Assembly (NCBI GenBank): GCA_023267195.1
Contig: JAHFNT010000005.1
Span: 14,875 to 78,874 of the forward strand
Reading direction: 5' to 3'
DNA: 64,000 nt
DNA from: Candidatus Nomurabacteria bacterium
GTDB taxonomy: Bacteria > Patescibacteriota > Minisyncoccia > Phycocordibacterales > UBA9973
Shown: one piece after another, positions 1,101 through 53,497 of the stretch
Layout of the letters: each line of letters starts with the position of its first letter
Position numbering within the stretch: position 1 is the stretch's first letter
The notes under the pieces: generated by a model
What the model saw: the letters and a program-made list of their open reading frames with translations, nothing else
Databases searched by the model: none
Told to the model about the DNA's origin: nothing
Translations under genes and position numbers: made by a program

Positions 1101-1150
1101 CTCTGAGGCTCAGTCTCGAAGAGGTCATGGTGAGTAAGCCCGAACCATGA
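1101..1150. repeat. Two tandem copies of the GAG..CGA hairpin element upstream of hpf
   Basis: CTCT-GAG-gctcagtct-CGA-AGAG (1101-1123) and TCATGGT-GAG-taagcc-CGA-ACCATGA (1125-1150). Confidence 0.75.
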
Positions 1151-1156
1151 TATAAT
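1148..1156 (+). promoter_or_regulatory. Extended -10 promoter of hpf (leaderless spacing)
   Basis: TGaTATAAT, then 6 nt, then ATG at 1163. Confidence 0.65.
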
Positions 1157-1162
1157 AAACAT

Positions 1163-1561
1163 ATGCAAATAAATTTACAGGGTAAAAATTTTGAGTTGAC
1201 CGAGTCAGTAAAGGACTATGTCCTAAAAAGGGTGACCAATCTGGAGAAATTACTTTCTAGCATAGAAGCGGGCGGAGGTGAAGTGCTAGTTGATTTTGAA
1301 GTGGGCAAGAGCACCAAGCATCATAAATCCGGTGATGTTTTTCATGCAGATTGCAACATTAATATCAACGGAAAAAATTTTTATTCAAGCTCGGATAAAG
1401 AAGACATTTTCCAGGCCATTGATGAAATCAAAGATACAATTTTTAACGATATAAGAAAAAATAAAGATCGGAAACAGACTCTGCTCAAGCGTGGCGCGCT
1501 TAGTATAAAAAAGATGTTGAAAGGCCTTACTAAGAGAAATCCATTTACTTCGAAGTACTAG
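1163..1561 (+). CDS. hpf: Ribosome hibernation factor HPF/RaiA
   Basis: MQINLQGKNFELTESVKDYV...EDIFQAIDE pattern of the S30AE family. Confidence 0.9.
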   Translation: MQINLQGKNFELTESVKDYVLKRVTNLEKLLSSIEAGGGEVLVDFEVGKSTKHHKSGDVFHADCNININGKNFYSSSDKEDIFQAIDEIKDTIFNDIRKNKDRKQTLLKRGALSIKKMLKGLTKRNPFTSKY

Positions 1562-2399
1562 TTTTCAAAAAATCTTCATATTTTATTTCTTTTTTGCCTT
1601 CAGGTAAGACTTTTTTGATTATAAATTTTTCATTTTCAAGCGTTGCTTCGGTTATGATAATTCTCTTGCTGTTTTTAAAAAAGAATGTGCGGGGCCATCT
1701 GGCATAAGCGCGGAATTTGTTATATAAAAAAACCCCATTTTCTTTTTCAATATCTACCAACCCATCTTCTTTTTTGATTTTTTTGCAGTAGCTTGTCTTT
1801 TTCTCATCTTGTGGTACTGTCTTGGTTTTGTTTTCTAAAATATCCGGTAATATTTTCACCAAAAGCTCCCCTCCCATTTTTATCAAACGTTTACGCAACA
1901 CTGAGGCGGTTTCTTCCTTTTCTATATTCGTTTTTTCTTGCGCTACAATATCTCCCGCGTCCATTTTATAAACCATCTTTTGAATAGTGATACCAGTTTC
2001 TATCTCGCCGTTTAAGATAGCGGATTCTATTGGAGAAGCGCCTCGGTATTTCGGTAAGAGTGAATAATGTATATTGATTGAACCAAATTTTGGAAGATTT
2101 AAAATATTTTCTGGAATAATTTTGCCATAGGCTATTACCACAAAAATATCATATTTGTTTTTATTAATTTTTTCCGCAAAATCTGAATCTAGATTTTCTG
2201 GTTTCAGGCAGGGGATATTATTTTCTTCGGCAAATTTGCTGACAGGCGTAGATTCCGTTTTCATACCCCTGCCTTGTTTACTGTCTGGCGAAGTAATGAT
2301 GACAGACGGCAAAAAACCTTTTTGTTTTAAAATTTGAAGTGTTTCAGACGCCACCTCGGGTGTACCCCAAAATGCAAAATTTAAATTATTTTTATTCAC
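1545..2399 (-). CDS. fmt: Methionyl-tRNA formyltransferase
   Basis: FWGTPE, INIHYSLLPKYRGASPI, KMDAGD; adjacent to def. Confidence 0.95.
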   Translation of the reverse strand: MNKNNLNFAFWGTPEVASETLQILKQKGFLPSVIITSPDSKQGRGMKTESTPVSKFAEENNIPCLKPENLDSDFAEKINKNKYDIFVVIAYGKIIPENILNLPKFGSINIHYSLLPKYRGASPIESAILNGEIETGITIQKMVYKMDAGDIVAQEKTNIEKEETASVLRKRLIKMGGELLVKILPDILENKTKTVPQDEKKTSYCKKIKKEDGLVDIEKENGVFLYNKFRAYARWPRTFFFKNSKRIIITEATLENEKFIIKKVLPEGKKEIKYEDFLKTSTSK

Positions 2400-2430
2400 T
2401 TTATAACTTTATTAACTTTCAATTTTATAA

Positions 2431-2982
2431 CTACTTTGGTAATTCTTCTTTTACATCTTTTGCATGATCAATAAAAAGTATGCCATTTAAATGGTCGGTT
2501 TCATGCTGAAAAATTTGCGCTAAAAGCCCGGATGCGCCACGAGTAAATTTTTTCCCTTCCTCGTTATAGGCTGTGACTGTAGCCTTTTTAGACCGGAAAG
2601 TTTTGCCATAGAGCCATCTTACAGACAGGCATCCCTCTGGCACCCAGTCTTTTTCACGTGAGAGCTTGGAAATTTTTGGGTTAATAAAAACAAGATCTTT
2701 ATTCAATTCTTCCGTCGCAGTGGATGATTCAGTGTCGGGGGCACTTGTCTCGTCTCTTTTTTTACCGAAATCTTTTGCAAATATTTTACCGGAAACGATA
2801 AAAATTCGTAGTGGATATCCTATCTGGGGTGCAGCTATCGCTACACCATCGTTTTGGCTTCGGAGGGCTTCAGACATTTCTTTCAATATATTCTGTATTT
2901 TTTTATTTTTGATATCGGGGACACGCACTTCATCTGCTATTTTGCGAAGGACTTTCTCTTTTTGTTGGAGAATTTTCTTCAT
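2431..2982 (-). CDS. def: Peptide deformylase
   Basis: GVAIAAPQIG, EGCLS, QHETDHLNG. Confidence 0.97.
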   Translation of the reverse strand: MKKILQQKEKVLRKIADEVRVPDIKNKKIQNILKEMSEALRSQNDGVAIAAPQIGYPLRIFIVSGKIFAKDFGKKRDETSAPDTESSTATEELNKDLVFINPKISKLSREKDWVPEGCLSVRWLYGKTFRSKKATVTAYNEEGKKFTRGASGLLAQIFQHETDHLNGILFIDHAKDVKEELPK

Positions 2983-2993
2983 ATTTTGCGGTT

Positions 2994-4301
2994 TTATTTA
3001 AGTTCCTTCAAGTATTCGAGGAGCTTGCTTAATTTTACGGTATCTTGAGATCTATTGGACATGTCTCTCACTATTACAGAATCGTCAAGCGCCTCTTTTA
3101 CTCCAAAGATTATTGCATAAGGAATAGAAAGCTTTTCCGCTATTGCCAATTGCGAGCCAAGGCTATCTTTAGATAATGACTGAGCAATAGGTATATGAGC
3201 CTTACGCAATATTTCAATTACGTTTAAACTTTTCAATTTTGCCTCAGACCCCAGTTGGATGAAATATATCTTAGGTTTTTTCATTATCCGTGGCGAGAGT
3301 TTTTTGTACCAAGTAGATGCTATTATGCGATCCACTCCTATAGATATTCCCACCGCTGGCACGTCGCGCTTGTTGCCTATTTGACGAGCCAGATAATCAT
3401 AGCGTCCGCCTCCACCAAGCGCTAGCGGAGTTCCATCCTCGCCCCCGTTTTGCTCTATAATTTCAAAAACAGTGCGGGTATAATAAGAAAGCCCGCGCAC
3501 TAGATTTTTATTTATATTGTAGGCTATGCCCATTTCTTCCAAATATTCAAGCACTTCTTTAAAATGTTTCTTACACGAAACACAGAGAGAAGAAACAGAA
3601 TCAGGAGCGTTTTCGTTTATTATTTTTGTTTTTTCTTCCTTTGAATCAAGTATGCGAAGCGGGTTTGTCTTCAGGCGTTCGCGGTCTACCGAAGGCAGAC
3701 TGCTTATATTTTTTTTATAATAATTGGTAAGTTCTCGTAGATATGTGTTTCGGCACTCTTTATCACCGATTGAATTTATGTCAATTGTCAGATTTTCTGC
3801 TCCGGCTTCCTCTAAGATGCTCATGCCAGCCTTTATCACTAGCGCATCCATAATGCTTTTCTCATTTCCCAAACAATCCAAATCAAATTGCCAAAATTGC
3901 CTATAGCGTCCGCGTTGAGGCTTGTCATGCCTGAAAACTGGACCATATTGATAAAACATCACCGGCTGAGGCATAGTTTGCATTCCGTGTTCTATGTAAG
4001 CTCGCATTAGAGGAGCCGTATGTTCGGGTCGGAGCGCTAGATGATCTCCGCCTTTAGTTTTAAATGCATACATTTCCTTATCCACAATGTCTGTGCCTTC
4101 ACCAATAGAAGAGGTAAAAATTTCTTCATGTTCCAATATTGGAGTATCGATAGGCTTGAACCCATAATAAACGGCAACTTCCTGTGCTTTTTCGAAGAAT
4201 CCCTGAAATCCATAATAATCTTCACTCATCAAATCCCGCATTCCTTTTGGGGATGCGATGTCGGTCATTTTGTTTTTGTTGGTGTGTGCAGTTTTTTTCA
4301 T
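2994..4301 (-). CDS. hisS: Histidine--tRNA ligase (start uncertain)
   Basis: PKGMRD, LRPEHTA, RYRQFWQ, LVRGLSYY, GGGRYD. Confidence 0.95.
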   Translation of the reverse strand: MKKTAHTNKNKMTDIASPKGMRDLMSEDYYGFQGFFEKAQEVAVYYGFKPIDTPILEHEEIFTSSIGEGTDIVDKEMYAFKTKGGDHLALRPEHTAPLMRAYIEHGMQTMPQPVMFYQYGPVFRHDKPQRGRYRQFWQFDLDCLGNEKSIMDALVIKAGMSILEEAGAENLTIDINSIGDKECRNTYLRELTNYYKKNISSLPSVDRERLKTNPLRILDSKEEKTKIINENAPDSVSSLCVSCKKHFKEVLEYLEEMGIAYNINKNLVRGLSYYTRTVFEIIEQNGGEDGTPLALGGGGRYDYLARQIGNKRDVPAVGISIGVDRIIASTWYKKLSPRIMKKPKIYFIQLGSEAKLKSLNVIEILRKAHIPIAQSLSKDSLGSQLAIAEKLSIPYAIIFGVKEALDDSVIVRDMSNRSQDTVKLSKLLEYLKELK

Positions 4302-4305
4302 ATAT

Positions 4306-4893
4306 TTATAACTTATCTTCTTGACTATAACTGCCCGGTAGCACATCTATCTGGCTTATGGGGAGTAAACGCAAAAATGCTTTTCCTGTCAAAAGACTTC
4401 TTTTAACAGCCCCCCAATATCTTGAATCAGAGCTAGCGCTCCTATTATCACCCATGACGAAATATTCATCATCTTTTAATTCAAAATGCGTATCGTTGTT
4501 TGCTTGATTTTTTACAAAAGGTTGCAGAAGTTTAAAACCCTCTTTGTTTTGGGCATTTGTTATTGTTACTTCATTACCCTTTATGTCTACGGTTTCGTTG
4601 GGTAGGCCGATAATTCTCTTGATGAAGAATTTTGTTGTATCACCCGGATAGCGAAAAATAACCACATCATCTCGTTTTGGATCGCCGAGCCTATAAGATA
4701 TTTTATCCACAATTAGATAATCTCCATTGGAAAAAGTCGGCACCATTGAAGAGCCAGAAACAATAAATGGTTCAGCTACCAATACGCGAATTGGCACGAC
4801 GATAAGCAGAGCGATGAGTGCAAAGCGCACCAACTCCCAGAACGACTGTGAAATTGTTTTTTCCGCCGCTCTCTCTTGTATTTTTTCTTCCAT
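4306..4893 (-). CDS. lepB: Signal peptidase I
   Basis: SGSSMVPT, FIKRIIGLP, GDNRSASSDSR. Confidence 0.95.
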   Translation of the reverse strand: MEEKIQERAAEKTISQSFWELVRFALIALLIVVPIRVLVAEPFIVSGSSMVPTFSNGDYLIVDKISYRLGDPKRDDVVIFRYPGDTTKFFIKRIIGLPNETVDIKGNEVTITNAQNKEGFKLLQPFVKNQANNDTHFELKDDEYFVMGDNRSASSDSRYWGAVKRSLLTGKAFLRLLPISQIDVLPGSYSQEDKL

Positions 4894-4992
4894 GGCTACA
4901 ATATAACATAAAAAATCCTTGACAGGGTAGCAAAATTTGTTGGGTAATTCAAAATTATGAATTAAGAATTATTAATTTGTTATCATATAAAG

Positions 4993-5520
4993 ATGAAGCT
5001 AGTAGTTGGTTTAGGAAATCCGGGTGAAGAGTATGAAAAGACCAGGCACAATACTGGGCGGATTTTAGTTTCGATGATAGAGGACAAACTGGAAGGAGAG
5101 AAGATAAAGTTCCTAACGCCGGATACTTTTATGAATAATTCTGGAAAAGCAGTTGTTCCTTTGGTAAAAAATAAAAAAGATTTGGAGAATTTGGTGGTGA
5201 TTTATGATGATATTGATTTACCGCTTGGTAAAATGAAAATTTCTTTCAATCGCTCGAGTGGGGGACATAACGGTTTAAATTCAATTATTAAAGCGCTAAA
5301 GTCTCAAGAATTTCTGCGGATTAGAATTGGTATTTCCCCTGCGACCCCATCAGGCAAAATTAAAAAACCAGTAGGTGAAAAAGCCGTTTTAAATTTCCTG
5401 CTTGGCGAATATAAAAAACCAGAATTAGAAACTCTCAAAAAACTTTCCAAAAAAGTGGCTGAGGCAGTGGAAACTATTTTTACCGAAAGCAAAGAAAAAG
5501 CAATGAGTCTTTATAATTAA
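4993..5520 (+). CDS. pth: Peptidyl-tRNA hydrolase (compact)
   Basis: VGLGNPG, TRHNTG, FMNNSG, GGHNG. Confidence 0.95.
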   Translation: MKLVVGLGNPGEEYEKTRHNTGRILVSMIEDKLEGEKIKFLTPDTFMNNSGKAVVPLVKNKKDLENLVVIYDDIDLPLGKMKISFNRSSGGHNGLNSIIKALKSQEFLRIRIGISPATPSGKIKKPVGEKAVLNFLLGEYKKPELETLKKLSKKVAEAVETIFTESKEKAMSLYN

Positions 5521-5521
5521 T

Positions 5522-8500
5522 TTAAATTTCCTTTACCGCTTCTATCACGATGCTCTTTTCGCCGTTGCGAAGAGAAACTTTGCCAGAGAAGGCTATGCAT
5601 TTTTCTGGGACGAGTATATCTGCAGAATCTTTGAAAATGGAAGGGAAACAAACGGCTTCGATGGTATCGCTCAGGTCTGCAATTTTTAAGAAAACCATGC
5701 GGTCATTGTTTTTAGTGATAACTTGCCTTGCATTTTCAATAATTCCAGCTAGGGTAGTTTGCATTCCGTTGCCGAATTCTTCTTTGACTTTTTTGATGTT
5801 CACAGTGCGTTTTTCTAATTTTTCCCGCAGGCGATCAAGTGGATGTCCGGAAATATAAAGTCCAAGCAGTTCTTTTTCCCAAAGCAATTTTTCTGCTTGG
5901 GTGGCTTCTCCCGCTTTTTGCAATTTGAATTCTGGGGCCTTAATTTCTGCAGAGCCGCCAAAAAGGGAAACCTGATTGCCGTTTTGTTTGGAATTTTCGT
6001 GGTTGTATTCCAACATTGCTTCTAGATTTGCCAAAAGTATTCCACGATCATTCCATTCATCCATGCAGCCGGATTTGATGAGCGCTTCCATAGATTTTTT
6101 ATTTAAATTTTTGTGTTTGATTCTATCCAAGAAATCTGTAATTGATTTGAATTTTCCATTTAATTTTCTTTCTTTGATGATTGCATCCGAAATATCCGTA
6201 CCCAAATTTTTGATTGTATAAAATCCGAATCTTATTTTTTCGCTTCTATTTTCTTTGTCTATGTTGAGCCCAGTTTTAGTCGATAAACAAGTGAATCCGC
6301 CAAAACTTTCGTTGATATTCGGTGGTAAAACCGGAATTTTCATATTTTTACATTCCTCGATTATTTCCGCGATTTTTTCCACATCGCCGGATTCGGCTGT
6401 TAAAATCGCGGCCATGTATTCTACTGGAAAGTGTGCTTTCAAATACGCTGTTTCGTAGGCGACTCGGCCATAGGAAGCAGCGTGCGCTTTATTGAATCCA
6501 TAAGCCTGAAAAGGCTCAAAAAGTTTCCAGAGTTTTTCTGCGAATTCTGGAGTTTGACCGTTTTTGATTATACCCTTGGTAAATTTTTCCCTTTGTGCCG
6601 CCATTTCAGCCGGTATTTTTTTACCGACGGCCTTACGGAATTTATCCGCTTCCTCCCAGTTATAACCAGCGAGTTCTATAGCACAAAAAAGAAGGTCATC
6701 TTGGTACACGATTAGCCCATATGATTCGCCTAGGAATTTTTTCATGCGCGGATCTAAATATTTTACGAGACTTGGATTGTGTTTGCGTTTGATGTACTCC
6801 GGAATTGATTCCATTGGGCCAGGACGGTATAAAGCGACCATGGCATTGATGTCGTGGATTGAAGAAGGTTTTAATTCTTTCAAATATCTAGTCATGCCGG
6901 AACCATTCAATTGGAAAAGCCCTTCTGTTTGGCCGTGTGCCAAAAGTTCAAAGGTTTTCTTGTCGTCGAGTGGTAGCTTGTCTAAATTTATTTCCACTTC
7001 GTAAAATTTTTTAACTAAATTGATTGCGTCTGCCAAAATTGCCAAATTTCTGATTCCCAAAAAGTCGAATTTTAAAAGTCCCGCTTCTTCTGCGCTATAC
7101 ATGTCATATTGGGTAATTATTTTTCCGCCTTTCGGGTCGAGCTGGGTCGGCATGTATTCATAAATAGGCAAGGGCGCGATGACTACTCCGGCGGCATGCA
7201 CCGAAATGTGTCGGACACACCCTTCCAATTTTTTGGCTAAATCTATTATTTCTTTCGTGTCTTTCTCTTTTTTGTAAGCTTCAGCTAGTTCTGGCACGAT
7301 TTCCATAGCGTGATCGATCGTCATCGGCATGCCTTGCGAACCCATCGGAATCATTTTAGAGATTCTATCTCCTACAGAGTAAGGGTAGGCAAGCGCTCGG
7401 GCTACATCTCGCACCGCTCCGCGTGCCATCATCGTACCAAAAGTTCCTATCTGGGCGACTTTATCTTCGCCATACTTTTGTTTGACATATTCAATCATTT
7501 CATCTCGCCTATTATCGGCGTAATCCATATCGATATCTGGAGCCGAAGGGCGGTAGGGGTTCAAAAATCGTTCAAATGGAAGTTTGTATTCAATAGGATT
7601 AATATTTGTAATTCCGATTAAATAAGTAACCATTGAGCCTGCTACCGATCCTCGGATAGCGGTCAGAATGCCGTTTTCTCTGGCATGTCGGAGCAGATCC
7701 CCAACTACTAAAAAATATGGAGAATAGCCTTTATCAAAAATAATTTTTAGTTCATATTCTATGCGGTCTTTTATTTCCGGAGTTTCTTTTATGTTCAAAT
7801 TTTTAAGCCCGGCGTAAGCGAGCTCGCGCAGTTTTGCATCATGTGTTTTACCATCTTCTATCTTTATGTCCGGGAAAACCCAACGCCCAAGTTCAAGCTC
7901 CAAATTGCACATTTCCGCTACTTTTAAAGTGTTATCAACTGCTTCAGGAACATCTTTGAAAATTTCTCTGGCCCTTTTTACGTCAATAAAAGAATAATCG
8001 CCATCCCCAAAGGAAAATTTATTTTCATCCTTAATGTCAGAATTTGTTTGAATGGACAGCAGGGTATCGTGCGCTTTACTGTCTTCTGTGTGGCAATAAT
8101 GTGAATCTATTGTTCCCACCAGAGGAATATTTAGCCGTTTACTTAAGGCAATTAAACCATCTTTGACTTCTTTTCCTCCATCAATTTTTCCATAATCTTG
8201 GATCTCTAGAAAATAATTTTCCTTACCAAAAATTTCTTGATATTCTTTAATTATTTTTTCTCCTGCCTCTGGATTTTTATTTGCCAGCGCTCGGCCAAGT
8301 TCTCCGCCGAGACAGCCGGAAAGCGCAATTAAGCCTTCAGAATATTTTCGTAAGATTTCTTTGTCCATGCGGGGTTTATAATAAAATCCTTCAACATGGG
8401 AAAGTGTCACTAGGCGCATAAGATTTTTATAACCCTGTAGGTTTTTCGCGAGCAGAATGAGATGGTATCTTTTGTTGTCTATGCCGGGGTCTTTATCTAG

Positions 8501-8728
8501 TCGGCCACGGTTTGAGATGTAAGCTTCAACGCCTATAATAGGTTTGACGCCAGCCTTTTTTGCCAGTTTATAGAATTCTATAGCGCCGTACATATTGCCA
8601 TGATCTGTGATAGCTATAGCTGGCATGCCAAATTTCTTGGCCAAATCCACTAAATCTTCAAGCTTTGAAAGCCCGTCCAAGAGGGAATAGTGCGAATGTG
8701 TATGTAGGTGGACAAAACCCTTTTCCAT
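5522..8728 (-). CDS. dnaE: DNA polymerase III alpha subunit
   Basis: [35 protein letters not shown]-terminal OB fold. Confidence 0.97.
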
Positions 8729-8755
8729 TTTTTTATAATAGCATATAATAGACCT
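8729..8755. promoter_or_regulatory. 27-bp divergent promoter region dnaE/gap
   Basis: + strand TATAAT 8744-8749, 6 nt before gap ATG 8756; - strand TGcTATTAT, 6 nt before dnaE ATG. Confidence 0.65.
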
Positions 8756-9808
8756 ATGAAAAAAATACGAGTTGGGATAAATGGTTTCGGCAGAATTGGT
8801 AGAGCTTTTTTAAAAGTTGCTTGGGATAGACCAGAAGTGGAAGTGGTTGCTGTAAATGATTTGGGCGATGTCGCCAACATGGCGTATCTTTTAAAATACG
8901 ACACGGTGTACCGAGAATGGAAACATGATATCAAAGTTGAGGGCGACAGTTTAGTTATTGATGCAAGAGAAGACAGAAAAGTAAAAGTTTTAGCGCAAAA
9001 AGATCCTGCGACGCTGCCATGGAAAGATTTGGGAGTGGATGTCGTCGTAGAATCGACTGGACTTTTTACCAGTTATGATAAAGCAAAAGTGCATTTGGAT
9101 GCTGGGGCAAAGAAAGTGGTGATTTCGGCGCCAGAAAAAGGCGGAGACCCTTCGACAAGCTCAGGGCAAGCGGTTCATGGGGAAACTATTTTGCTTGGCG
9201 TGAATGAAGAAAAATTTGGCACTTGCGATCTTACTTCCAATGCTTCTTGTACGACGAATGCGGCTTCGCCTTTGATCGCTATTCTCAATGAAGCTTTAGG
9301 AGTAGAAAAAGCTATTTTAAATACAGTGCATGGCTATACGGCTTCGCAAGGAATTGTCGATGGACCAAATAAAAAAGATTTTCGGGAAGGTCGCGCCGCA
9401 GCGCAAAATATTGTCCCTTCTTCGACTGGTGCAGCGATCGCCGTGACGAAAGCTTTTCCCGAGCTCGAAGGACTTTTTGATGGTATTTCCATCCGCGTGC
9501 CAGTAGTTGCTGGGTCAATTGTAGACGTTACTTTTATATCAAAAAAAGAAACGACCGCCAAAGAAGTGAATTCTATACTCCAAAAAGCTTCTCAAGATTC
9601 CAGATGGAATAAAATTTTTGCCGTGACCGAAGAGCCTTTAGTTTCTGGTGATATTTTGGGAAGTAGTTATGGTTCAATCGCTGACCTCAAAATGACTCGC
9701 GTCGTCGGCGGCAATCTCGTAAAAGTGATGGGCTGGTACGACAACGAAATGGGGTATACCTATACTCTCGTGGATCATGTAATCAAGACGGGGGAAACTA
9801 TAAAATAA
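8756..9808 (+). CDS. gap: Glyceraldehyde-3-phosphate dehydrogenase (type I)
   Basis: [22 protein letters not shown]; start moved to MKKIRVG. Confidence 0.97.
9146..9170 (+). repeat. In-frame hairpin element in gap (DPSTSSGQ)
   Basis: CCCT-TCG-acaag-CTC-AGGG-CAAG. Confidence 0.8.
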
Positions 9809-11925: not shown

Positions 11926-12426
11926 ATGAAAATCTATATTGGCTCTGATCACACTGGGTATGAATTAAAAGAAAAATTAAAAAAATATTTAAGTGAACTT
12001 GAGCTTGGATATGAGGTGGTGGATAAGGGTGCCTTTAAATATGATGCTGATGATGATTACCCAGATTTTATCGAGCCGGTGGCGGAAGCTGTCGCTAGTG
12101 AAGAGGGGAGCCTCGGTGTCATTCTCGGCGGCTCAGGGCAAGGAGAAGCCATGTGCGCAAATAGAGTAAGGGGTGCACGAGCAGCAGTGTTTTATAGCGA
12201 AGCTTTTCCTAAAGAAGCTATTGATATAAATGGTGGTAAAAGCGAGGATTCTTTTGAAATTGTAAAGCTTGCAAGAATACATAATAACGCAAATATTTTA
12301 TCTTTAAGCGTCAGATTTTTATCCGAAGATCAAATAAAATTTGCTGTTGAACTTTTTCTTAAAACTCCATTTGGAAACGAAGAGAGGCATGTACGTCGCA
12401 TTAATAAACTAGAGCCTAGTGCCTAA
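11926..12426 (+). CDS. rpiB: Ribose-5-phosphate isomerase B
   Basis: IGSDHTG, DDYPD, GGSGQG, ARIHNNAN, RHVRRI. Confidence 0.93.
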   Translation: MKIYIGSDHTGYELKEKLKKYLSELELGYEVVDKGAFKYDADDDYPDFIEPVAEAVASEEGSLGVILGGSGQGEAMCANRVRGARAAVFYSEAFPKEAIDINGGKSEDSFEIVKLARIHNNANILSLSVRFLSEDQIKFAVELFLKTPFGNEERHVRRINKLEPSA

Positions 12427-13143: not shown

Positions 13144-14013
13144 ATGTCATTCTTGTCTGAAGATAAAATAAAAGAGCTCGCGAAAAAAGCAAACGAGATT
13201 CGGATGTCGATTATTGAAATGTTGGTGGAAGCGAAAAGCGGACACACGGCCGGGCCGCTCGGGATGGCAGATATTTTTACTCTTTTTTATTTTCATGTTT
13301 TAAAACACGATCCAAAAAATCCAAGTTGGGAAGAACGAGACAGGCTCGTGCTTTCAAACGGACACATTTGTCCAGTCTTGTATGCGACGATGGCGCACGC
13401 AGGGTATTTTCCATTAGAGGAATTGAAAACTCTGCGTAAATTCGGCACGCGCTTGCAAGGTCATCCACACCGAGAATATATGCCCTGGGTAGAAAATAGT
13501 TCTGGTCCGCTCGGTTCTGGGCTTTCACAAGCAGTCGGTATGGCGCTCGCAGATAAAATGGATGGTTCGGCTTCGCTCACCACAGGCAAAAAAATGCCAG
13601 ATCGGTTTATTTATGCTTTTTTGTCAGACGGGGAAATGGATGAAGGCAATACCTGGGAAGCGGTGATGCTTGCCGGAAAACATAAACTTCACAACCTGAT
13701 CGCAATTGTGGACCGAAATAATATTCAGATTGAGGGATATACTGAAGACGTGCTGCCACTCGAGCCTTTTCATGCTAAGTGGAAAAGTTTTAATTGGCAT
13801 GTGATAGAAGTTTCTGGACATGATTTTAGATTTCTAAACGAAGTAATAGAAGAAGCGCAAGCTGTTTACGAAAAGCCGACAGTCATCATCGCGCATACGA
13901 TACCCGGTAAAGGCGTCAAAGAATTTGAGAGAAATTATAAATGGCATGGCAAACCGCCCTCCAAAGAAGAAGGGGAAATGGCCTTAGAAGAACTTAATAA
14001 TAATCGATTCTAG
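13144..14013 (+). CDS. tkt: Transketolase, N-terminal (TPP-binding) subunit
   Basis: SGHTAG, LSNGH, LQGHP, SDGEMDEG, WHGKPP; start set at MSFLSE after TGgTATAAT. Confidence 0.95.
   Translation: MSFLSEDKIKELAKKANEIRMSIIEMLVEAKSGHTAGPLGMADIFTLFYFHVLKHDPKNPSWEERDRLVLSNGHICPVLYATMAHAGYFPLEELKTLRKFGTRLQGHPHREYMPWVENSSGPLGSGLSQAVGMALADKMDGSASLTTGKKMPDRFIYAFLSDGEMDEGNTWEAVMLAGKHKLHNLIAIVDRNNIQIEGYTEDVLPLEPFHAKWKSFNWHVIEVSGHDFRFLNEVIEEAQAVYEKPTVIIAHTIPGKGVKEFERNYKWHGKPPSKEEGEMALEELNNNRF
13563..13587 (+). repeat. In-frame hairpin element in tkt (GSASLTTG)
   Basis: TGGT-TCG-gcttcg-CTC-ACCA-CAGG. Confidence 0.8.
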
Positions 14014-22852: not shown

Positions 22853-22872
22853 GGCTTCGACTGGGCTCAGCC
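22853..22872 (+). repeat. Intergenic hairpin element between csoR and copA
   Basis: GGCT-TCG-actggg-CTC-AGCC. Confidence 0.75.
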
Positions 22873-22894
22873 GAAAATCCTCACTATAAATAGT

Positions 22895-25219
22895 ATGAAC
22901 ACATTTAAAACATACAAGGTAAAAGGAATGCATTGCGCGTCTTGCGCCAGTATTATTGAAAGAACTATCAAGAAAATTGAGGGGGTAGCAAATATTGAGG
23001 TGAATCCGGGCACCGAAAATGCCAAGATTTCTTTTGATACAAACAAAACCAACGCGGAACAATTTAATCAAAAACTTGAACCACTTGGTTACTCGCTACA
23101 CAATATGAACATGTCAGCAAACGCTTCGGCTGTGCTCAGTGCAAGTGATATGAATATGAGTGAAGATGAACATAAAGAGCATTTGGGACTGAATCAAACT
23201 AAAAAAGAAAAGTTGGCAGAACTGAAGGACATGAAGAATAAACTTCTTTCTCTAATTCCTATTGTGCTCATTAGTATTTTTGTAATGAGTTACGATATTT
23301 TGGCGCAGTTTAAAGTTATTGCCGAGATGTCTTATTTCTGGAATGAATTTTTCCATCATCTTTTACCAGTTTTGGCCACTTACACGCTATTTGTAGTTGG
23401 TAAGCCATACTTACTCGGCTTATATCGTTTTTTTCGTCATGGACAAGCCAACATGGACACACTTATTGGTCTCGGTACGCTAGTGGCTTTTTTATATAGT
23501 TTTATTGTTAGCGCTTTTGAAGAAAGTTTAAAGGCTTTTATAAATGTCAATCAAAGTTATTACGATGTTACTATCATTGTGATTGCTTTCATTACACTTG
23601 GAAAATATCTGGAAGCGCGTTCAAAATTAAAAACAGGCGATGCGATTGAAAAACTTTTAAATCTACAGGCGAAAACTGCTTTAGTGGTTCGCGGTGAAAG
23701 GGAAGTTGAAATTCCGGTAGATCAAGTTATGCATGGTGATATTATTATCGTAAAACCCGGGGCAAAAATTCCAGTTGATGGCCTGATTGTTTCAGGATTT
23801 TCTTATGTTGATGAATCAATGGTGACCGGCGAACCAATGCCAGTAGAAAAAAAAGAGGGAGATGCTGTAGTATCTGGGACGATTAATACAACGGGATCTT
23901 TCACTTTTAGGGCGACGAAAGTTGGTGGAGAAACTCTGCTTGCCCATATTGTGAAAATGGTGGAAGAAGCACAAGGGAGTAAGGCACCGATACAGGCTTT
24001 GGCGGACAAAATTTCCAGTATCTTTGTGCCGGTTGTTTTGGGGATTGCAGTTTTGACTTTAGTGTTATGGCTTTTAGTTGGTATGCAATATTTTGGTTTC
24101 TCCCAAGCGCTTTCTTTTGGTTTGGTTTCTTTTGTGGGGATTTTGGTTATTGCATGTCCATGCGCTCTCGGTCTGGCGACACCGACGGCAATCATTGTTG
24201 GTGTAGGCAAAGGTGCGCGCGAAGGAATTTTAATCAAAGATGCGGCAACATTGCAAAAATTACACCAAGTCAATGTAGTTGTCGTGGATAAAACAGGTAC
24301 TTTGACTATGGGGAAACCCGAGCTTATTGCAGTTAAAAATTTTTCAAATAAAAATGATGATGAGCTGGTTTCTATTCTGGCCACTTTAGAAAATAAATCA
24401 GAACACCCTATTGCTCACGCCGTAATAAATTATGCAAAATCAAAAAAGCTAAAAATTAGCGAGCTGAATGATTTTGAAATTATAAAGGGCAAAGGACTTA
24501 AAGGAAGGGTTGACGGGGTAGAATATTTTGCTGGTAATACTAGACTAATTGAGGATCTAAATCTGCCGTTTGATAAAAATCTTTTGGAAAAAGAAACCTT
24601 GGAAGGCAAGACCCCGATAATTTTGGCGAATCAAAATGCAGTGCTCTGTGTGGTTTTGATAGCGGACGCGATAAAACCGGAAGCGATCGAGGCAGTAAAT
24701 AATTTACACAAACTCGGCGTCAAAATTGTGATGTTGACAGGAGACCATAAAAATACTGCTAAATATATTGCGAAGCTTGTCGGTATTGATGATATCGTGT
24801 CGGAAGCAATGCCGGAGAGTAAATTAGATAAAATCAAAGAATTGCAAGCGGAAGGCCAGGTCGTGGCGATGGCTGGAGATGGAGTAAATGACGCACCGGC
24901 GCTCGCGCAAGCGGATGTGGGTATTGCTATGGCTACTGGGACAGATGTGGCGATTGAAAGCGCTGGCATTACACTTCTACATGGCGATATTTCCAAACTA
25001 GTGAAAGCTATAAAACTTTCTAAAATGACAATGCGTGGAATCAAGCAGAATCTTTTCTGGGCTTTTGTTTATAATATTATTGGAATTCCGCTCGCATCTG
25101 GAATTTTCTTCCCATTCTTTGGTTGGTTGCTTTCGCCAGTCTTTGCTGGGTTTGCCATGGCGATGTCTTCAGTGTCTGTGGTAGGGAATTCGCTTCGCAT
25201 TAAGAGTAAAAAATTGTAA
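22895..25219 (+). CDS. copA: Cu(I)-translocating P1B-type ATPase
   Basis: GMHCASC, TGE, CPC, DKTGT, SEHP, GDGVND, YN and MAMSS. Confidence 0.96.
23117..23144 (+). repeat. In-frame hairpin element in copA (NASAVLSA) flanked by a GCAA direct repeat
   Basis: GCAA-a-CGCT-TCG-gctgtg-CTC-AGT-GCAA; the GCAA copies are 24 nt apart. Confidence 0.75.
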
Positions 25220-28409: not shown

Positions 28410-29441
28410 ATGAGATATTATACATTTCATGTTCAAGGCACTCATTGCGCATCGTGTAAAATCTTAATTGAAGATGTTTTGGAAGAGCAAGATTTTATCA
28501 AAAGGGTGCAGGTGAATCTAAAAAGAGAAATAGTGGAAATAGAAACGGAAAGCGAAAAGAGCCCAGAAGAACTTATTGCAATCTTAAATCCAAAAATAAA
28601 ACAAAATGGCTATGTGCTTTCTCTAGATGGTTCGGCTCCTCTCACCACAGGAAAAAATACAGAAATAAAAAATGACAACAATGTGCTTTGGCAAGCGATA
28701 CCCATCGGACTTGTATTCTTAGCGTTGTTTTTTTTATTACAAAAATCTGGCATTTTAGATCTTGGCTTTGGGGGCGAGACGACGCCAGCGACCAGTTTTC
28801 TTATTGGTTTGATCGCCTCAGTTTCGAGTTGTCTGGCGGTCGTTGGTGGCTTGGTTTTGTCTTTATCCGCCAAGATATCAGAAGATGATGAAAGCGACAC
28901 AAAAACTTTTATACTTTTTCACTCCGGTAGATTGTTTAGTTTTGCCATTTTAGGTGGGGCGCTAGGATTAATAGGCAACGCTATTGGTATTAATTTTACC
29001 TTTACGGCAATATTGGGTTTGGTCGCGTCTTTAGTGATGCTATTTCTTGGTTTGAATTTAGTGGGCGTGTTTACTAAAAATAAAATAACTTTGCCGTCTG
29101 GAATTTTTAACTTCTTTAGAAAAATTGAGCACAAGACTTTTACTCCGCTCATTATTGGTTTTGCCACTTTTTTTCTGCCATGCGGATTTACCCAATCAAT
29201 GCAAGTTGTTGCACTCTCCAGCGGATCATTTGTGTCTGGGCTCTTAATTATGTTGGCTTTTGCTTTAGGAACTTTGCCTATGCTTTTATTATTATCGTTC
29301 GGGTCAGCGTCTTTTGCCCATTCAAAATATGCGCCGCTATTTTTCAAATCAGCTGGAGTGGTGGTAATAGGTCTAGGAGTATTTGCGCTGCTTGCAGGGT
29401 TGGCTGGTTTGGGAATTATAAATCCACTATTTAATATTTGA
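28410..29441 (+). CDS. HMA domain fused to DsbD_2/TauE-like membrane domain
   Basis: GTHCASC, SSCLAVVGG, FHSGRL, FFLPCGFTQ. Confidence 0.85.
   Translation: MRYYTFHVQGTHCASCKILIEDVLEEQDFIKRVQVNLKREIVEIETESEKSPEELIAILNPKIKQNGYVLSLDGSAPLTTGKNTEIKNDNNVLWQAIPIGLVFLALFFLLQKSGILDLGFGGETTPATSFLIGLIASVSSCLAVVGGLVLSLSAKISEDDESDTKTFILFHSGRLFSFAILGGALGLIGNAIGINFTFTAILGLVASLVMLFLGLNLVGVFTKNKITLPSGIFNFFRKIEHKTFTPLIIGFATFFLPCGFTQSMQVVALSSGSFVSGLLIMLAFALGTLPMLLLLSFGSASFAHSKYAPLFFKSAGVVVIGLGVFALLAGLAGLGIINPLFNI
28628..28651 (+). repeat. In-frame hairpin element (GSAPLTTG) in the HMA-TM linker
   Basis: TGGT-TCG-gctcct-CTC-ACCA-CAGG, near-identical to the tkt copy. Confidence 0.8.
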
Positions 29442-46012: not shown

Positions 46013-46037
46013 TTAACAGTAGTAGTATAATTGCAAT

Positions 46038-48125: not shown

Positions 48126-48139
48126 ATATTATATAAAGA

Positions 48140-49819
48140 ATGGAGAAAATTTTGCGAATTTTTACAAAAGAATCTGGCAGCATAAATCAAGCAGCCCTTC
48201 TTTTGGGTTCTCTTACTTTGCTTTCTCAAATTTTAGGGCTTCTCCGTGATCGATCTATTGCGCATTTCATCGGGCCCTCATCAACTCTCGATGCTTATTA
48301 TGCCGCTTTTCGCGTACCGGATCTTATTTTTATTTGTGTGGCATCGCTGGCCTCTGTTACGGTGATAATTCCTTTTATTGTTGCTCGGATGAATGGTGGA
48401 GAAGTAACCAAGGAAGCGCAAAAATACCTAAACGACATCTTTACGGTTTTTTTTAGTTTGATAGTCCTGGTTTCTTTAGCAGCATTTTTTCTGATGCCAT
48501 ATTTTGTGCATTATGTTGCCCCAGGTTTTACCGAGTATTATCAGGTAGAAGTTATTTTACTTTCTAGGATAATGTTGTTCTCGCCAATCTTGATGGGATT
48601 GTCAAATCTTTTTGGCTCCATTACCCAGCTTTTTCGGAAATTTTTTATTTATTCTTTAAGCCCGATTTTTTATAATTTGGGAATTATTGCCGGAGTTGTA
48701 CTTTTTTATCCCAAATTTGGAATTTCAGGATTAGCTTACGGGGTGGCACTGGGAGCTCTGATGCATTTTTTGGTGCAGGCTTTTGCTTCACATGGTTCTG
48801 GCTTTACCCCCCAGTTTTCCCTAACTATTAATTTTAAAGATATAAAACAAATAGCACTCACTTCGCTCCCGAGGACCATGGGTCTCGCTTTCAATAATCT
48901 CGCCCTGATTGCGATAATTGCTCTTGCTTCCTACTTAAAGAGTGGTTCTATCTCCGTATTCAATCTTTCTTTCAACCTTCAATCAGTACCGCTTAACATC
49001 ATAGGCATCTCATATGCGGTGGCCGCTTTTCCAACTCTGGCAAAATCTTTTGTTGGTGATAAAAAGGATGAATTCAAAAAACATTTGAAAGCTACTGCGA
49101 GAGCGATAGTTTTTTGGTCTTTGCCCGTTATCTTTCTTTTTATTGTGGTGCGGGCGCAGATTGTGCGCGTAATTTTGGGCTCCGGATCTTTTTCCTGGGA
49201 AGATACTCGTTTGGTGGCTGCCTGCCTAGCCATTTTTTCTATTTCAATTTTGGCCCAGGGTATGATCGCGCTTCTTTCTCGTTCGTATTATGCGACAGGG
49301 AATACTAAGCGCCCGCTGATTGTAAACTTTTCCTGTTCTGTTTTAATTATAATTTTATCCTACGTGCTTATTTATGTTTTCCAACATATGCCAATGTTCA
49401 GATATTTCATAGAATCATTGCTCAAGGTTAGCGATATCGCGGGGACGGAGGTATTGATGTTGCCACTCGCATATTCTATTGGCACAATTTTGAATTTTAT
49501 CCTGCATTGGATATTTATCAAGAAAGATTTCCTGCCAGACGAATCTTTCATTACTAAGACTTTCTTTCAGAGTTTGGGTGCGTCGTTTTTCTTGGGAGCT
49601 GTTGCTTATGTGAGTCTCAATATTCTCTCTCCAATTTTTGGCACGACGACTTTCTGGGGAGTTTTCTTACAGGGTTTTATTTCTGGTATTCTCGGCATTA
49701 TCGCTGCCGTGATCGTCTTGTATTTATTAAAGAACGAAGAATTAAAAGATCTTACTCAAACCCTCAAAACAAAATTCTGGCAGGCAAAAATCATCGCCCC
49801 AGCCCAAGAAGAGCTTTAA
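48140..49819 (+). CDS. murJ: Lipid II flippase MurJ/MviN
   Basis: LGLLRDR, DAYYAAFRVPD, AAFPTL, RSYYA. Confidence 0.92.
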   Translation: MEKILRIFTKESGSINQAALLLGSLTLLSQILGLLRDRSIAHFIGPSSTLDAYYAAFRVPDLIFICVASLASVTVIIPFIVARMNGGEVTKEAQKYLNDIFTVFFSLIVLVSLAAFFLMPYFVHYVAPGFTEYYQVEVILLSRIMLFSPILMGLSNLFGSITQLFRKFFIYSLSPIFYNLGIIAGVVLFYPKFGISGLAYGVALGALMHFLVQAFASHGSGFTPQFSLTINFKDIKQIALTSLPRTMGLAFNNLALIAIIALASYLKSGSISVFNLSFNLQSVPLNIIGISYAVAAFPTLAKSFVGDKKDEFKKHLKATARAIVFWSLPVIFLFIVVRAQIVRVILGSGSFSWEDTRLVAACLAIFSISILAQGMIALLSRSYYATGNTKRPLIVNFSCSVLIIILSYVLIYVFQHMPMFRYFIESLLKVSDIAGTEVLMLPLAYSIGTILNFILHWIFIKKDFLPDESFITKTFFQSLGASFFLGAVAYVSLNILSPIFGTTTFWGVFLQGFISGILGIIAAVIVLYLLKNEELKDLTQTLKTKFWQAKIIAPAQEEL

Positions 49820-49891
49820 ACTTAACGTTTTTATTTCTACGTGGTATAATGACGAAACGGACGGAAATGTCCATTTTTCTGTTTTAATGAT

Positions 49892-51667
49892 ATGGAAAAA
49901 GATTATTCAAATTTACACCGAAATTTGGTGCTCAAATATTTTTGGCAAGTAATTAGAAATTATAAAGTTTCTTTTTTTACCATTATTATTAGCATAATAA
50001 TTTTTGTTGGTTTTGATATTTTTATTCCTTTACAGTTTCTTAAACTTTGGAACATATTGAGTTCTAGCAATTTTGACTCTATAAATAATGCAAGAAGCAT
50101 AGTTATCCTTATCCTTATTTTGGGGCTCATTCGCATGTTGTTTAGACGACTTATGGATTTTTCAAGTTCTTACCTAAAAGCAAATGTTATGGCAGGACTT
50201 CGCGAACAGGCATTTTCTTATATGATTGGACATTCACACTCTTTTTTTGCAAATAAATTTGCAGGATCTTTAACCCAAAAGATAGGTAAATATGCTAGAT
50301 CTTTTGACAGATTGATGGATGGGTTAATTAGAGATGGGATTCCATTAATTATTAGGTCTGCCGGTACTATTATTGCTATTTATTTTATCGCCCCCAAATA
50401 CGCTTATATATTAGCTGTGTTTTGTTTTATATTTTTGGTGACAGCTTTAATTTACACTAGACTTAAATTAAAATATGATGTAATTGCTGCTTTAGCAGAT
50501 ACAAAAACTACTGGAGTACTAGCTGACTCAATAAGTAACCATTCTTCCATTCAACTATTCACAGGCCATGAATACGAAAGAGAACGTGTTGGTAGAGTTA
50601 TTCAAGAACAAAAAAAGGTGACCCTTTTTAATTGGAACTTATGGAATGGATTAGGTGCCATACAGGTCTCTTATGTATTAACTATAGAATTTATTATTTT
50701 TTGGACCGCTATTGGTGACTGGAGAGTTGGGCTAATAGGGTTGCCAGTAATAGTACTTATCCAGAGTTATTTTGGTCGTTTAATGGACGGTCTTTGGGAT
50801 TTTGCAGGCATTATACGCATTTTTTATGATGGTTTTGCCGATGCGCAAGAAATGGCGCTTATTTTAAACACACCCTATGAAATTCTTGATAAAACAGCAG
50901 AAGTTGTCAGGAACCCAGGAGGGGGAATTGTTTTTGATAATGTAACTTATGTTTATGAAAATAATACCTCAAAAGTGTTAGATAATTTTTCTCTAATCAT
51001 TCCCGTGGGACAAAAAATTGCAATTGTTGGTTCCTCAGGAGCAGGAAAAACAACATTTGTTCGTCTTTTAATGAGATTGTTTGATCTTACTTCTGGAAAA
51101 ATTATGATTGATGGGATTGATATAAGTAAAATTTCTCAACAAAATCTTCGAGAGCAGATTGCTTTTGTGCCACAAGACCCGGTCTTGTTTCACCGTACTC
51201 TTATGGAGAATATTCGTTATGGTAGGCGTGATGCGACAGATGAAGAAGTTTTAGATGCTGCACGCCTTTCACACTGTAATGATTTTATTGCAACCTTACC
51301 AGAAGGATATGAAACGAAGGTGGGTGAAAGAGGAATTAAACTTTCAGGGGGAGAACGTCAGCGTGTAGCTATTGCCCGGGCAATTTTAAAAAATGCACCA
51401 ATTTTAATTTTAGACGAGGCGACTTCTTCGCTGGACTCTCATTCTGAATATTTAATTCAAGATGCATTACGCACGCTCATGAGGGGCAAAACAACAATTG
51501 TTATTGCACACAGGCTTTCAACTATACGTGAGATGGATAGAATTGTTGTAATAGAAAAAGGAAAAATTATTGAGGATGGGGGGCACAATGAACTCTTGAA
51601 TCAAGAGGGTGGATTATATAAAAAATTGTGGGACCTGCAAGCGGGAGGATTTAAAAATATAATATAG
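49892..51667 (+). CDS. ABC exporter, fused permease/ATPase
   Basis: TMD plus GSSGAGKTT, LSGGERQR, LDEATSSLD. Confidence 0.93.
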   Translation: MEKDYSNLHRNLVLKYFWQVIRNYKVSFFTIIISIIIFVGFDIFIPLQFLKLWNILSSSNFDSINNARSIVILILILGLIRMLFRRLMDFSSSYLKANVMAGLREQAFSYMIGHSHSFFANKFAGSLTQKIGKYARSFDRLMDGLIRDGIPLIIRSAGTIIAIYFIAPKYAYILAVFCFIFLVTALIYTRLKLKYDVIAALADTKTTGVLADSISNHSSIQLFTGHEYERERVGRVIQEQKKVTLFNWNLWNGLGAIQVSYVLTIEFIIFWTAIGDWRVGLIGLPVIVLIQSYFGRLMDGLWDFAGIIRIFYDGFADAQEMALILNTPYEILDKTAEVVRNPGGGIVFDNVTYVYENNTSKVLDNFSLIIPVGQKIAIVGSSGAGKTTFVRLLMRLFDLTSGKIMIDGIDISKISQQNLREQIAFVPQDPVLFHRTLMENIRYGRRDATDEEVLDAARLSHCNDFIATLPEGYETKVGERGIKLSGGERQRVAIARAILKNAPILILDEATSSLDSHSEYLIQDALRTLMRGKTTIVIAHRLSTIREMDRIVVIEKGKIIEDGGHNELLNQEGGLYKKLWDLQAGGFKNII

Positions 51668-51670
51668 TTT

Positions 51671-53497
51671 ATGGATCTCAAACACATCAGAAATTTTTCA
51701 ATCATCGCGCACATTGATCACGGCAAGAGCACCTTGGCAGATAGAATGCTTGAGATCACGCATACAATCGAAACTCGCAAAATGCGAGATCAGGTACTGG
51801 ATTCAATGGATTTGGAACGAGAGCGGGGGATTACCATCAAAATGCAACCTGTGCGAATGGAGTATGAATTTAAAGGGGAAAAATATATTTTAAACCTGAT
51901 CGATACCCCTGGGCACATAGATTTTTCCTATGAGGTTTCTCGCGCTTTAAAGGCCGTAGAAGGCTCTATTTTGCTCATAGATTCTACCCAGGGGGTACAA
52001 GCTCAGACTCTTACCACGCTTAATATGGCACGTCAGGGAGGCCTTAAAATCATCCCTGTGCTGTCTAAAATTGACTCCCTGTTGTCTAGGGTACCCGAAG
52101 TAAGAGAAGAGGTTATAAAGCTTTTAAATTGCGACCCGGAAGAAATCTTATTAGTCTCTGGTCGTACAGGTGAGGGAGTAGAAAATTTATTGCAAGAGGT
52201 TATAAAACGAGTACCAGAGCCCGTAGAAACAAATCATGGGGAAAATATATTGCGCGCGCTTGTTTTCGATTTTAAATATTCCAACCATAAAGGGGTGATA
52301 GTTTTTGTGCGGGTGCTTGATGGCAAAGTTCAAAAAGGGGATACCCTGCTTTTCGCTGTTTCGGAAGAAAAATTTATTGCGCTCGAAGTTGGTATTTTTT
52401 CACCCGAGGAAACCCCGCGCGATTCTCTTTCAGGTGGAGAGACAGGTTATATCGTTACCGGAATTAAAAAGCCTGGCATAGCTTCTGTTGGAGATACAAT
52501 TACCATGTTTAAAAACCCCTTACCAGCCTTTCCCGGTTATAGGCAACCGATGCCTGTTGTTTGGGCTTCAGTTTTTCCGGAAGATGCGGACGATTTTGCT
52601 GAATTAAAACTTGCCTTGGGTAAATTAAAACTTTCTGACTCAGCTTTCTCTTACGAAGAAGAGGCTTCAGGTTCCCTGGGGAAAGGATTCAGATGTGGAT
52701 TTTTGGGAATGCTTCATCTGGAAATTATCACCGAGCGTTTAAAACGCGAATTCAATCTGGAGTTGGTTATCACCACCCCTTCTATCACCTATGAAGTTTT
52801 ACTGAAAAATGGCCCCTCGGTTCCGCTCGGGACAGGCAAGCGCGAAAAAATTTATTCCCCATACTTTTTTCCCGACGACGGTCTTGTGGAAAAAGTTTTT
52901 GAGCCTTGGGTAAATTTAAAAATAATTACCCCAGTAGAATACATTGGTAGCATCATGCAGCTTTTGTTTGACCACGAAGGGGAAATAGGCGAAACGGATA
53001 ATTTTGGGGACAATAGGTCATCCATCTCAGTGCAGATTCCTTTGCGTGAACTGATGCGCAACTTTTTCGATGAATTAAAAAGTGCCACTTCGGGCTATGG
53101 TTCCATTTCCTATGAAATGGGCGAGATGCGCGAGGCAAATGTAACCAGGCTTGATTTATTGGTGGCGGATGAAGTGATACCGGCTTTCTCTAGGGTTGTA
53201 TCAAGAAAAAGAGCCGAAGAAGAAGCAGAAGAAGCAGTTGAAAAACTGGCAAATCTTTTGCCCAGGCAGATGTTTACTCTGAAAATTCAGGGTCGGGCGC
53301 TTGGGCGAATTATTTCTTCACGCACTCTCTCAGGGATGAAAAAAGATGTCACTCAACACATGTATGGGGGCGATATTACTCGCAAAATGAAACTTCGTGA
53401 GAAGCAAAAGAAAGGCAAGAAGAAAATGAAAGAAAGAGGGAAAGTAAATATTCCACAAGATGTGTTTTTAAAGATGATGCGCGCCGGTGAAAAATAG
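51671..53497 (+). CDS. lepA: Elongation factor 4
   Basis: AHIDHGKST, ERGITIK, GFLGMLH, YGGDITRK. Confidence 0.97.
   Translation: MDLKHIRNFSIIAHIDHGKSTLADRMLEITHTIETRKMRDQVLDSMDLERERGITIKMQPVRMEYEFKGEKYILNLIDTPGHIDFSYEVSRALKAVEGSILLIDSTQGVQAQTLTTLNMARQGGLKIIPVLSKIDSLLSRVPEVREEVIKLLNCDPEEILLVSGRTGEGVENLLQEVIKRVPEPVETNHGENILRALVFDFKYSNHKGVIVFVRVLDGKVQKGDTLLFAVSEEKFIALEVGIFSPEETPRDSLSGGETGYIVTGIKKPGIASVGDTITMFKNPLPAFPGYRQPMPVVWASVFPEDADDFAELKLALGKLKLSDSAFSYEEEASGSLGKGFRCGFLGMLHLEIITERLKREFNLELVITTPSITYEVLLKNGPSVPLGTGKREKIYSPYFFPDDGLVEKVFEPWVNLKIITPVEYIGSIMQLLFDHEGEIGETDNFGDNRSSISVQIPLRELMRNFFDELKSATSGYGSISYEMGEMREANVTRLDLLVADEVIPAFSRVVSRKRAEEEAEEAVEKLANLLPRQMFTLKIQGRALGRIISSRTLSGMKKDVTQHMYGGDITRKMKLREKQKKGKKKMKERGKVNIPQDVFLKMMRAGEK
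52811..52837 (+). repeat. In-frame hairpin element in lepA (GPSVPLGTG) flanked by a GGC direct repeat
   Basis: GGC-CCC-TCG-gttccg-CTC-GGG-aca-GGC; the GGC copies are 24 nt apart. Confidence 0.75.

Follow-up and report, generated by a model that had tools for sequence, protein, structure and literature searches.

Tandem-GA mini-hairpins inserted in frame in genes of a Candidatus Nomurabacteria genome, with small GIY-YIG nucleases as candidate partners

In a 64,000-nucleotide (nt) stretch of DNA from a Candidatus Nomurabacteria bacterium (assembly GCA_023267195.1, contig JAHFNT010000005.1, positions 14,875 to 78,874; hereafter the window), a preliminary description had proposed a family of very small hairpins inserted in core genes. 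We followed this up in the genome containing the window (designated G000; 648 kb, 7 contigs, 91% complete), in its relatives and in public data, and found that the family of 23–24-nt hairpins is real. Its unit, 23–24 nt in all, has a 4-bp stem that encloses TCG, 5–6 nt and CTC and is followed by a 4-nt foot. Relative to orthologs, 16 of 23 testable coding copies were insertions, which bears out the earlier idea of a non-autonomous element that is defined by structure and writes short peptides into proteins in frame. In other organisms, such hairpins were found next to genes for small GIY-YIG proteins. The explanation we favor, with a probability of roughly 60%, is that the copies are non-autonomous and probably selfish hairpins that owe their spread to small GIY-YIG proteins with a single domain, which would act on single-stranded DNA (ssDNA), and that they are filtered by reading frame and by the tolerance of protein loops.

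The form stem (at least 4 Watson-Crick pairs)-TCG-N5..7-CTC-stem occurred 36 times in the genome. Compared to this, 20 synonymous-codon shuffles of the genome gave a mean of 2.35 (maximum 6) and 20 codon shuffles a mean of 2.85 (maximum 7), an enrichment in line with the preliminary description. The excess over shuffled sequences was confined to 5- and 6-nt loops, and TCG..CTC was the top trinucleotide pair within such stems (32 occurrences vs 10 for the runner-up). About 30 genome copies are therefore real. Among 39 candidates in the genome, 13 were intergenic and 26 were located within called open reading frames (ORFs). The tails of 35 copies were CAAG (9), CAGG (4), TGAC (3), TAAA (3) and others, and a GTCA foot was present only in the three TGAC-tailed copies. 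The distribution among relatives was patchy, the strict pattern being present in 15 of 41 genomes.

Evidence for insertion came from orthologs in G013, G022, part of G018 and fetched loci, with which 23 of the 26 coding copies could be aligned. The 16 net insertions ranged from +6 to +11 residues, and eight of them were exactly +8. In lepA, exactly 8 residues are absent from 24 of 29 orthologs; in other orthologs the same loop carries related hairpins (two sequences), a decayed copy (one) or an unrelated palindrome (one). In tkt, 18 of 21 orthologs are shorter by 7–9 residues, and in one a related copy occupies the identical site. An AlphaFold model based on 20 sequences (pLDDT 78) placed the tkt insert between a helix and a strand, as a coil of low confidence; a model built without an alignment (pLDDT 40) was not used. 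The copy in the HMA-DsbD gene is absent from 15 of 16 orthologs; in the remaining one, a different copy sits in another frame. For gap, 25 of 29 orthologs are 4–7 residues shorter, and G017 has the same hairpin at this site. CopA differed in size by only −2 to +3 residues from its three closest orthologs; its copy matches the family in sequence pattern although no clean indel was seen. Thus, the addition of about 7–8 residues suggested earlier holds for tkt, HMA-DsbD and lepA (+8 each) but not for gap (+6), and is unclear for CopA. Besides gap, insertions were common to relatives at C1:105478 (G018 and G022) and in miaA (G021).

All eight copies reported previously were recovered, with two small corrections (the lepA unit starts at 52813 and the second reverse copy at 1124). 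The five coding copies of the window are indeed in sense orientation; their TCG is translated as Ser and their tail is CAAG or CAGG. The three non-coding ones have other tails (CGAA, TGAC and GAAA). Fixed frame and orientation, however, are a property of the window and not a general rule: the 16 ortholog-confirmed insertions included 10 in the Ser frame, three in other sense frames and three antisense, so that Ser-frame placement is a bias. Several matches that showed no indel in orthologs (window 12113 and G000 C5:141660, 128367, 111597 and 71211) were judged to be chance or overwritten; the one at 12113, in rpiB, is a chance match. We also observed unrelated palindrome families in frame in identical protein loops of sister genomes (L012 and L016 in gap, L036 in lepA, L165 in the copA linker); these loops are therefore shared landing sites. 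In addition, G017 and G000 are 85% identical in gap (L004) and only 72% in lepA, and horizontal transfer of gap is possible judging from these sequences.

The ends of the unit could be defined. We compared 19 registers by the match to orthologs that remained after excision. Excision of 24 nt, beginning with the first base of the stem and including the whole 4-nt tail, came first or tied for first at six of eight gap-free sites and was near best at the other two; four further sites had no gap-free ortholog. A nested series was found at C1:105478: the site is empty in G013, contains one outer 24-mer in G018 and G022, and contains an outer and an inner 24-mer in G000, where the inner copy sits in the outer loop and has a different stem. 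A second nested pair, with the same loop position, was found at C5:157400. Both the register test and the nested series place the C[CT]TG foot proposed earlier within the inserted unit. No fixed target duplication flanked the unit in dsbD, uvrB, C7:32791 or a palindrome-centred viral copy (L438); elsewhere, microhomologies of 1–3 nt were present, including those at lepA and miaA.

The target also appeared to be biased. In this bacterial group, the base before CA[AG]G-tailed units was A in 30 of 42 copies and the base after was a pyrimidine (Y) in 31 of 42. The 24-nt CA[AG]G unit is also common in GC-rich prokaryotic virus contigs (L373–L501; at least 129 stretches), often within REP-type or NTS-type hairpins. 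Among at least 127 viral copies, 40 had A before and 111 a pyrimidine after the unit, and 16 of the 126 listed were located in tips of other hairpins, compared to 2.1% of control positions. An A|Y preference would favor the position after the second base of Asp, Asn, Glu and Lys codons and may thereby explain the Ser-frame bias; alternatively, this bias may reflect selection for small polar loop residues.

The sequence pattern points to a structure of ssDNA, on the strand that usually serves as template, and not of the mRNA. The core on the strand opposite TCG..CTC read Y-GAG..CGA-R in all 35 genome copies with four Watson-Crick pairs, such that a Y-R pair closes the GA tandem; Y-GA-R is the favored context for tandem GA. 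In 39 of 56 six-base and 26 of 33 five-base loops, the closing pair was C-G, with a bulged base after it. GNA triloops were found on the GA strand in 17 cases vs 2 on the other strand among 39 copies of this group, and in 63 vs 4 among at least 127 viral copies. The viral triloops ranked GAA (24), GGA (20), GCA (11) and GTA (8) among the matches listed, the same order as the measured stability of DNA mini-hairpins (PMC13037366), and the stacking of tandem GA mismatches in DNA is strong (PMC8163305). From these patterns we infer how the GAG..CGA strand would fold: the foot is followed by the stem, then by two sheared G.A pairs in the Y-GA-R context and one G-C pair; beyond a bulged pyrimidine, a C-G pair would close a GNA triloop or a TT mini-loop.

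The preliminary description rightly stated that no mobilising gene is present in the window, but it looked to HUH or RAYT-type enzymes, for which G000 offered no candidate: no Y1 transposase (PF01797, E≤1) was detected in this 91%-complete genome. Nor was there a DUF559 match. In relatives, the genes adjoining hairpins encoded GIY-YIG proteins. When 30 GIY-YIG loci were chosen by Pfam alone, five, including two of the same genus, had a hairpin just upstream of the start codon, and four of the five were near tRNA-Gln or tmRNA genes. A larger test used metagenomic relatives of one GIY-YIG protein: the best 80 of 549 were kept, and 74 distinct loci had enough flank. Among these 74, picked by protein alone, 23 had a hairpin within 200 nt upstream, 17 of them in GAG orientation. 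At least 31 matches were present in 14.4 kb of upstream sequence vs 13 in 104.7 kb of far flank, which corresponds to about 17-fold enrichment. The CA[AG]G-tailed form upstream of nucleases often begins at a tRNA 3' end, which is therefore a possible source of this foot.

We also searched 185,579 genomes for the hairpin followed by the motif YVYI[LF] and obtained 17 loci in many phyla, with 14 open GIY-YIG-like frames, two broken ones and one unconfirmed. An inverted hairpin was present at the gene end in 12 of the 17, although the search pattern did not demand it. All four hairpin-flanked proteins that were checked matched PF01541, and no specific NCBIfam family was found for the partner proteins; most presumably resemble the neighboring GIY-YIG group UPF0213/cd10456 and not cd10448. 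In a protein tree with weak deep support, hairpin-flanked proteins occurred in several groups outside a 16-member hairpin-free clade; the tree, whose hairpin labels leave out L063, L064 and L127, was used only to place this clade. GIY-YIG genes, which the preliminary description had named only as one of several neighbors to look for, thus had copies beside them in relatives and public data and not in G000. The sole small GIY-YIG gene of G000 (C5:10375–10625; L001 1374–1614, minus strand) is frameshifted and lies directly upstream of tRNA-Leu(CAA). It was rejected as a partner: palindromes of another family precede it, and genes of its type lack such hairpins in relatives. Proteins of this type have the motif K-S/T-G-x-G-R at their end, and their genes are often found next to tRNA genes in relatives. 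Separately, G000 has a hairpin-like stretch after tRNA-Gln(CTG) at the end of a contig (C5:190598–190712), a position that nuclease cassettes usually occupy in relatives.

The insertions, unit ends, nesting and gene neighborhood are observed; recognition, cutting and joining of the folded strand would proceed as follows. A small GIY-YIG nuclease is predicted to recognize the hairpin on ssDNA and to nick it at the foot, and the short piece would then be taken up by host repair at an exposed single-stranded site, probably a hairpin tip with A|Y preference. Copies in genes would survive only if they are in frame within tolerant loops. The putative partners are the GIY-YIG cassettes, often just after tRNA-Gln or tmRNA, whose upstream hairpins share the core and sometimes the CA[AG]G foot. 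The nuclease gene may have been lost from G000 or lie in its unassembled part, in which case the copies are probably relics. A bolder version, in which an 80-residue GIY-YIG protein itself acts as a transposase that excises or copies the 24-nt element as a single-stranded mini-hairpin and inserts it duplication-free at A|Y, seems unlikely.

Several observations weigh against a nuclease-driven spread. GIY-YIG nucleases are not known to join strands. No gene of the hairpin-linked GIY-YIG clade was detected in the 91%-complete G000, 51 of the 74 metagenomic loci lacked an upstream hairpin, only five of the 74 had the CA[AG]G-footed form, and no GIY-YIG motif was present within 400 nt of the CA[AG]G unit in any of at least 129 viral loci. 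Among the 23 testable coding matches, four showed no indel and three were unclear. Copies with a 5-nt loop are 23 nt in length and require a compensating change to keep the frame. Since kin share insertions, the significance of the base and loop biases and of the tip enrichment is overstated. DNA folding with ViennaRNA gave strand differences never beyond 0.8 kcal/mol and no significant z-score, so that the one-strand stability proposed earlier is supported by the invariant Y closing the GA tandem and by the GNA triloops but not by calculated asymmetry; we believe that the ViennaRNA model has no terms for sheared pairs. Finally, SsnA, a nuclease of this kind, cuts 4 nt upstream of the CGTC foot (20-nt product, oligo NTS75) and not at the foot (PMC11893778, Supplementary data 8).

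Other explanations assign the movement elsewhere. The nuclease might only cut, while host processes such as template switching or recombination at stalled forks and cruciform tips copy the stable mini-hairpin to new sites. The enrichment in hairpin tips, the nesting, the microhomologies at lepA and miaA, the net sizes other than +8 at eight of 16 sites and the lack of a known joining chemistry for GIY-YIG proteins would all suit such copying. We nevertheless consider it doubtful, because the stem-to-foot boundary is identical at unrelated sites in unrelated hosts, and the two copies of a nested pair differ in their stems, so that neither is a local duplication. A rather improbable candidate is an HUH transposase (IS200/IS605 or RAYT) that reads the hairpin and 4-nt foot, with the copies as REP-like passengers and the GIY-YIG link secondary. 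The unit boundary exactly at the foot agrees with this, and duplication-free insertion, a 4-nt foot at the unit end and structure on one strand are generally expected from peel-and-paste chemistry. The absence of PF01797 matches in the 91%-complete G000 and the presence of GIY-YIG genes beside hairpins elsewhere argue against it. RAYT transposases are linked with GTAG repeats, and no transposase gene flanked by CGTC repeats was found (PMC3733652).

It is very improbable that the copies serve the host, either as DNA-binding or restriction-like sites in DNA uptake, as NTS in Neisseria, or as useful protein loops. SsnA/NTS modulates transformation (PMC11893778), and the insertions shared with relatives (gap, C1:105478, miaA) would be consistent with retention; however, the strict pattern is patchy among relatives, the same loops also accept unrelated palindromes, copies decay or lose flanking codons, and different frames yield different peptides. 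Spread by small GIY-YIG proteins remains the reading that we prefer.

The closest known system is the pairing of NTS/SRM hairpins with Ssn proteins, single-domain GIY-YIG ssDNA nucleases (Chenal et al. 2025, PMC11893778). Both involve a short, directional, dispersed hairpin with a 5' foot and a flanking gene for an 80–105-residue GIY-YIG protein, often arranged as hairpin, gene and inverted hairpin; here, this flanking arrangement was found in relatives and public data and not in G000. Some tandem-GA hairpins also have a GTCA foot, and one unit is located inside the loop of an NTS-type hairpin (L381). In contrast, the stem is interrupted here by the GA/GA tandem, the foot is mostly C[CT]TG, and 26 of 39 candidates are in called ORFs, whereas NTS rarely are in genes (2%, PMC11893778). 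The published SRM motif, under one reading of its gap notation, had no match in G000 and two unrelated matches in 127 nuclease loci. CGTC repeats, including Rickettsia RPE-4 and RPE-6, are likewise 20–40-nt palindromes with a 4-nt foot and no dedicated transposase (Di Nocera et al. 2013, PMC3733652), and single in-frame copies of 8–9 residues in housekeeping genes have been tabulated for them (PMC3733652, Additional file 3); the novelty of the preliminary description was overstated in this respect. In-frame insertion absent from orthologs, a feature of those repeats, was found here at the 16 coding copies described above. They differ in having an 8–9-bp stem, a 4–5-nt loop and a CCA tail; the present family has a 4-bp stem, an 11–12-nt interior, invariant TCG/CTC and no fixed tail on the stem side, and no terminal CGTC, TGTC or CCTC tag was found among the tails of 35 genome copies. 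By our comparison, the family appears to work like the Ssn/SRM pair and the intragenic CGTC/RPE repeats, and falls outside both by published tests (SRM motif, CGTC tag, stem length).

Other repeats are more distant. Rickettsia palindromic elements (approximately 150 bp) likewise enter metabolic genes in frame, in a reduced genome and without relation among the genes (PMC10969869), but are six times longer and encode a conserved peptide, whereas the peptide here varies with frame and strand. The GTAG REPs associated with RAYT are also non-autonomous hairpins with a tetranucleotide foot (PMC3733652); here there is no GTAG foot and, as mentioned, no Y1 gene. The combination of terminal inverted repeats and a fixed target-site duplication that characterizes miniature inverted-repeat transposable elements was not found. 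In Rfam searches, no family matched the hairpins in the window or in the 17 nuclease loci, and at E≤10 only tRNAs were meaningful. Flavo-1 RNA, a look-alike, was dismissed, as RF01705 had no match in the genome and its alignment rows look unrelated. In the accessible parts of the open-access literature, there was no description of the tandem-GA variant or of its spread in genes of the candidate phyla radiation; this does not cover the consensus in Figure 2 of PMC3733652, two supplement files of PMC11893778 or subscription papers.

While the in-frame behavior of palindromes is already known, the exact 24-nt unit, the series of empty, single and nested sites, the target bias and the protein-selected association test are what the present analysis adds. 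Di Nocera et al. did not settle which agent mobilizes CGTC-type repeats (PMC3733652), and Chenal et al. only raised as an idea that Ssn-type nucleases spread hairpins (PMC11893778). The present family lends itself to a sharp test: its ends are defined, sister genomes offer filled, empty and nested alleles, its target is biased, and candidate enzymes (about 80 residues) can be named. Should the nucleases cut the hairpin, sequence-specific ssDNA nucleases extend beyond the published motif. The inserted peptides also account for odd insertions in loops and for wrongly called starts in ultra-small bacterial genomes. If the transposase version were true, it would add a third single-strand mobility chemistry beside HUH enzymes, explain the transposase-free spread of CGTC and Rickettsia-type repeats, and continually supply core proteins of ultra-small bacteria with new 8-residue loops, the element being among the smallest possible.

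Copies of the window are listed in Table 1.

Table 1. Tandem-GA hairpins in the window (positions of the 64,000-nt stretch)
Feature	Position	Strand	Remarks
Intergenic hairpin, 9-nt loop	1101..1123	-	First half of two-hairpin unit; tail CGAA
Intergenic hairpin, 7-bp stem	1124..1147	-	Tail TGAC, i.e. GTCA foot on GA strand, like CGTC/SRM repeats
gap copy, 23 nt, 5-nt loop, CAAG foot	9148..9170	+	Net +6 residues
tkt (transketolase N subunit) copy, 24 nt	13563..13586	+	+8 residues, helix-strand loop; putative GAA mini-hairpin on template strand
Intergenic copy directly upstream of copA	22853..22876	+	Tail GAAA
copA copy, 24 nt, two G-T pairs, CAAG foot	23122..23145	+	Variable His/Met linker of CopA
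HMA-DsbD_2 copy, 24 nt	28628..28651	+	Exactly +8 residues
lepA copy, 24 nt	52813..52836	+	Exactly +8 residues
Probable ninth copy, imperfect (3 pairs and a mismatch)	62970..62993	-	3' end of ORF 62967–63947

The two intergenic hairpins at 1101–1147 form a composite unit, in which a 9-nt-loop hairpin is joined to a GTCA-footed hairpin between genes. Such units were also found at G000 C7:37608–37650, C4:167–205 and, in part, C6:71477, and are near-identical at two loci. The imperfect copy at 62970–62993 creates a false 5' extension of a PrsW-like ORF (62269–62997). Mechanically called start codons were too early for this ORF and at 8708 (gap) and 13081 (tkt), where orthologs align from later Met codons.

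A search of sequencing runs matched three DNA runs of one study, one of them possibly the source, with no RNA run and no empty allele among the matches listed. Antisense CCTT-tailed copies repeatedly encode acidic peptides of the E-G-P-E-x-x-E-G type in Glu-rich linkers (G000 C7:45592; G018 C2:11929; G022 C2:43686 and C3:28724; L043:3181). One copy, at G000 C6:71620, abuts the 3' end of tRNA-Pro. A subfamily with TAGT/ACTA stems and a TAAA tail was solely intergenic; in G000 two members (C7:125183 and C7:125749) are located around a ribosomal-protein-like gene, and others were found in G018, G022 and G046, suggesting that this subfamily may have been co-opted as a gene-boundary signal.

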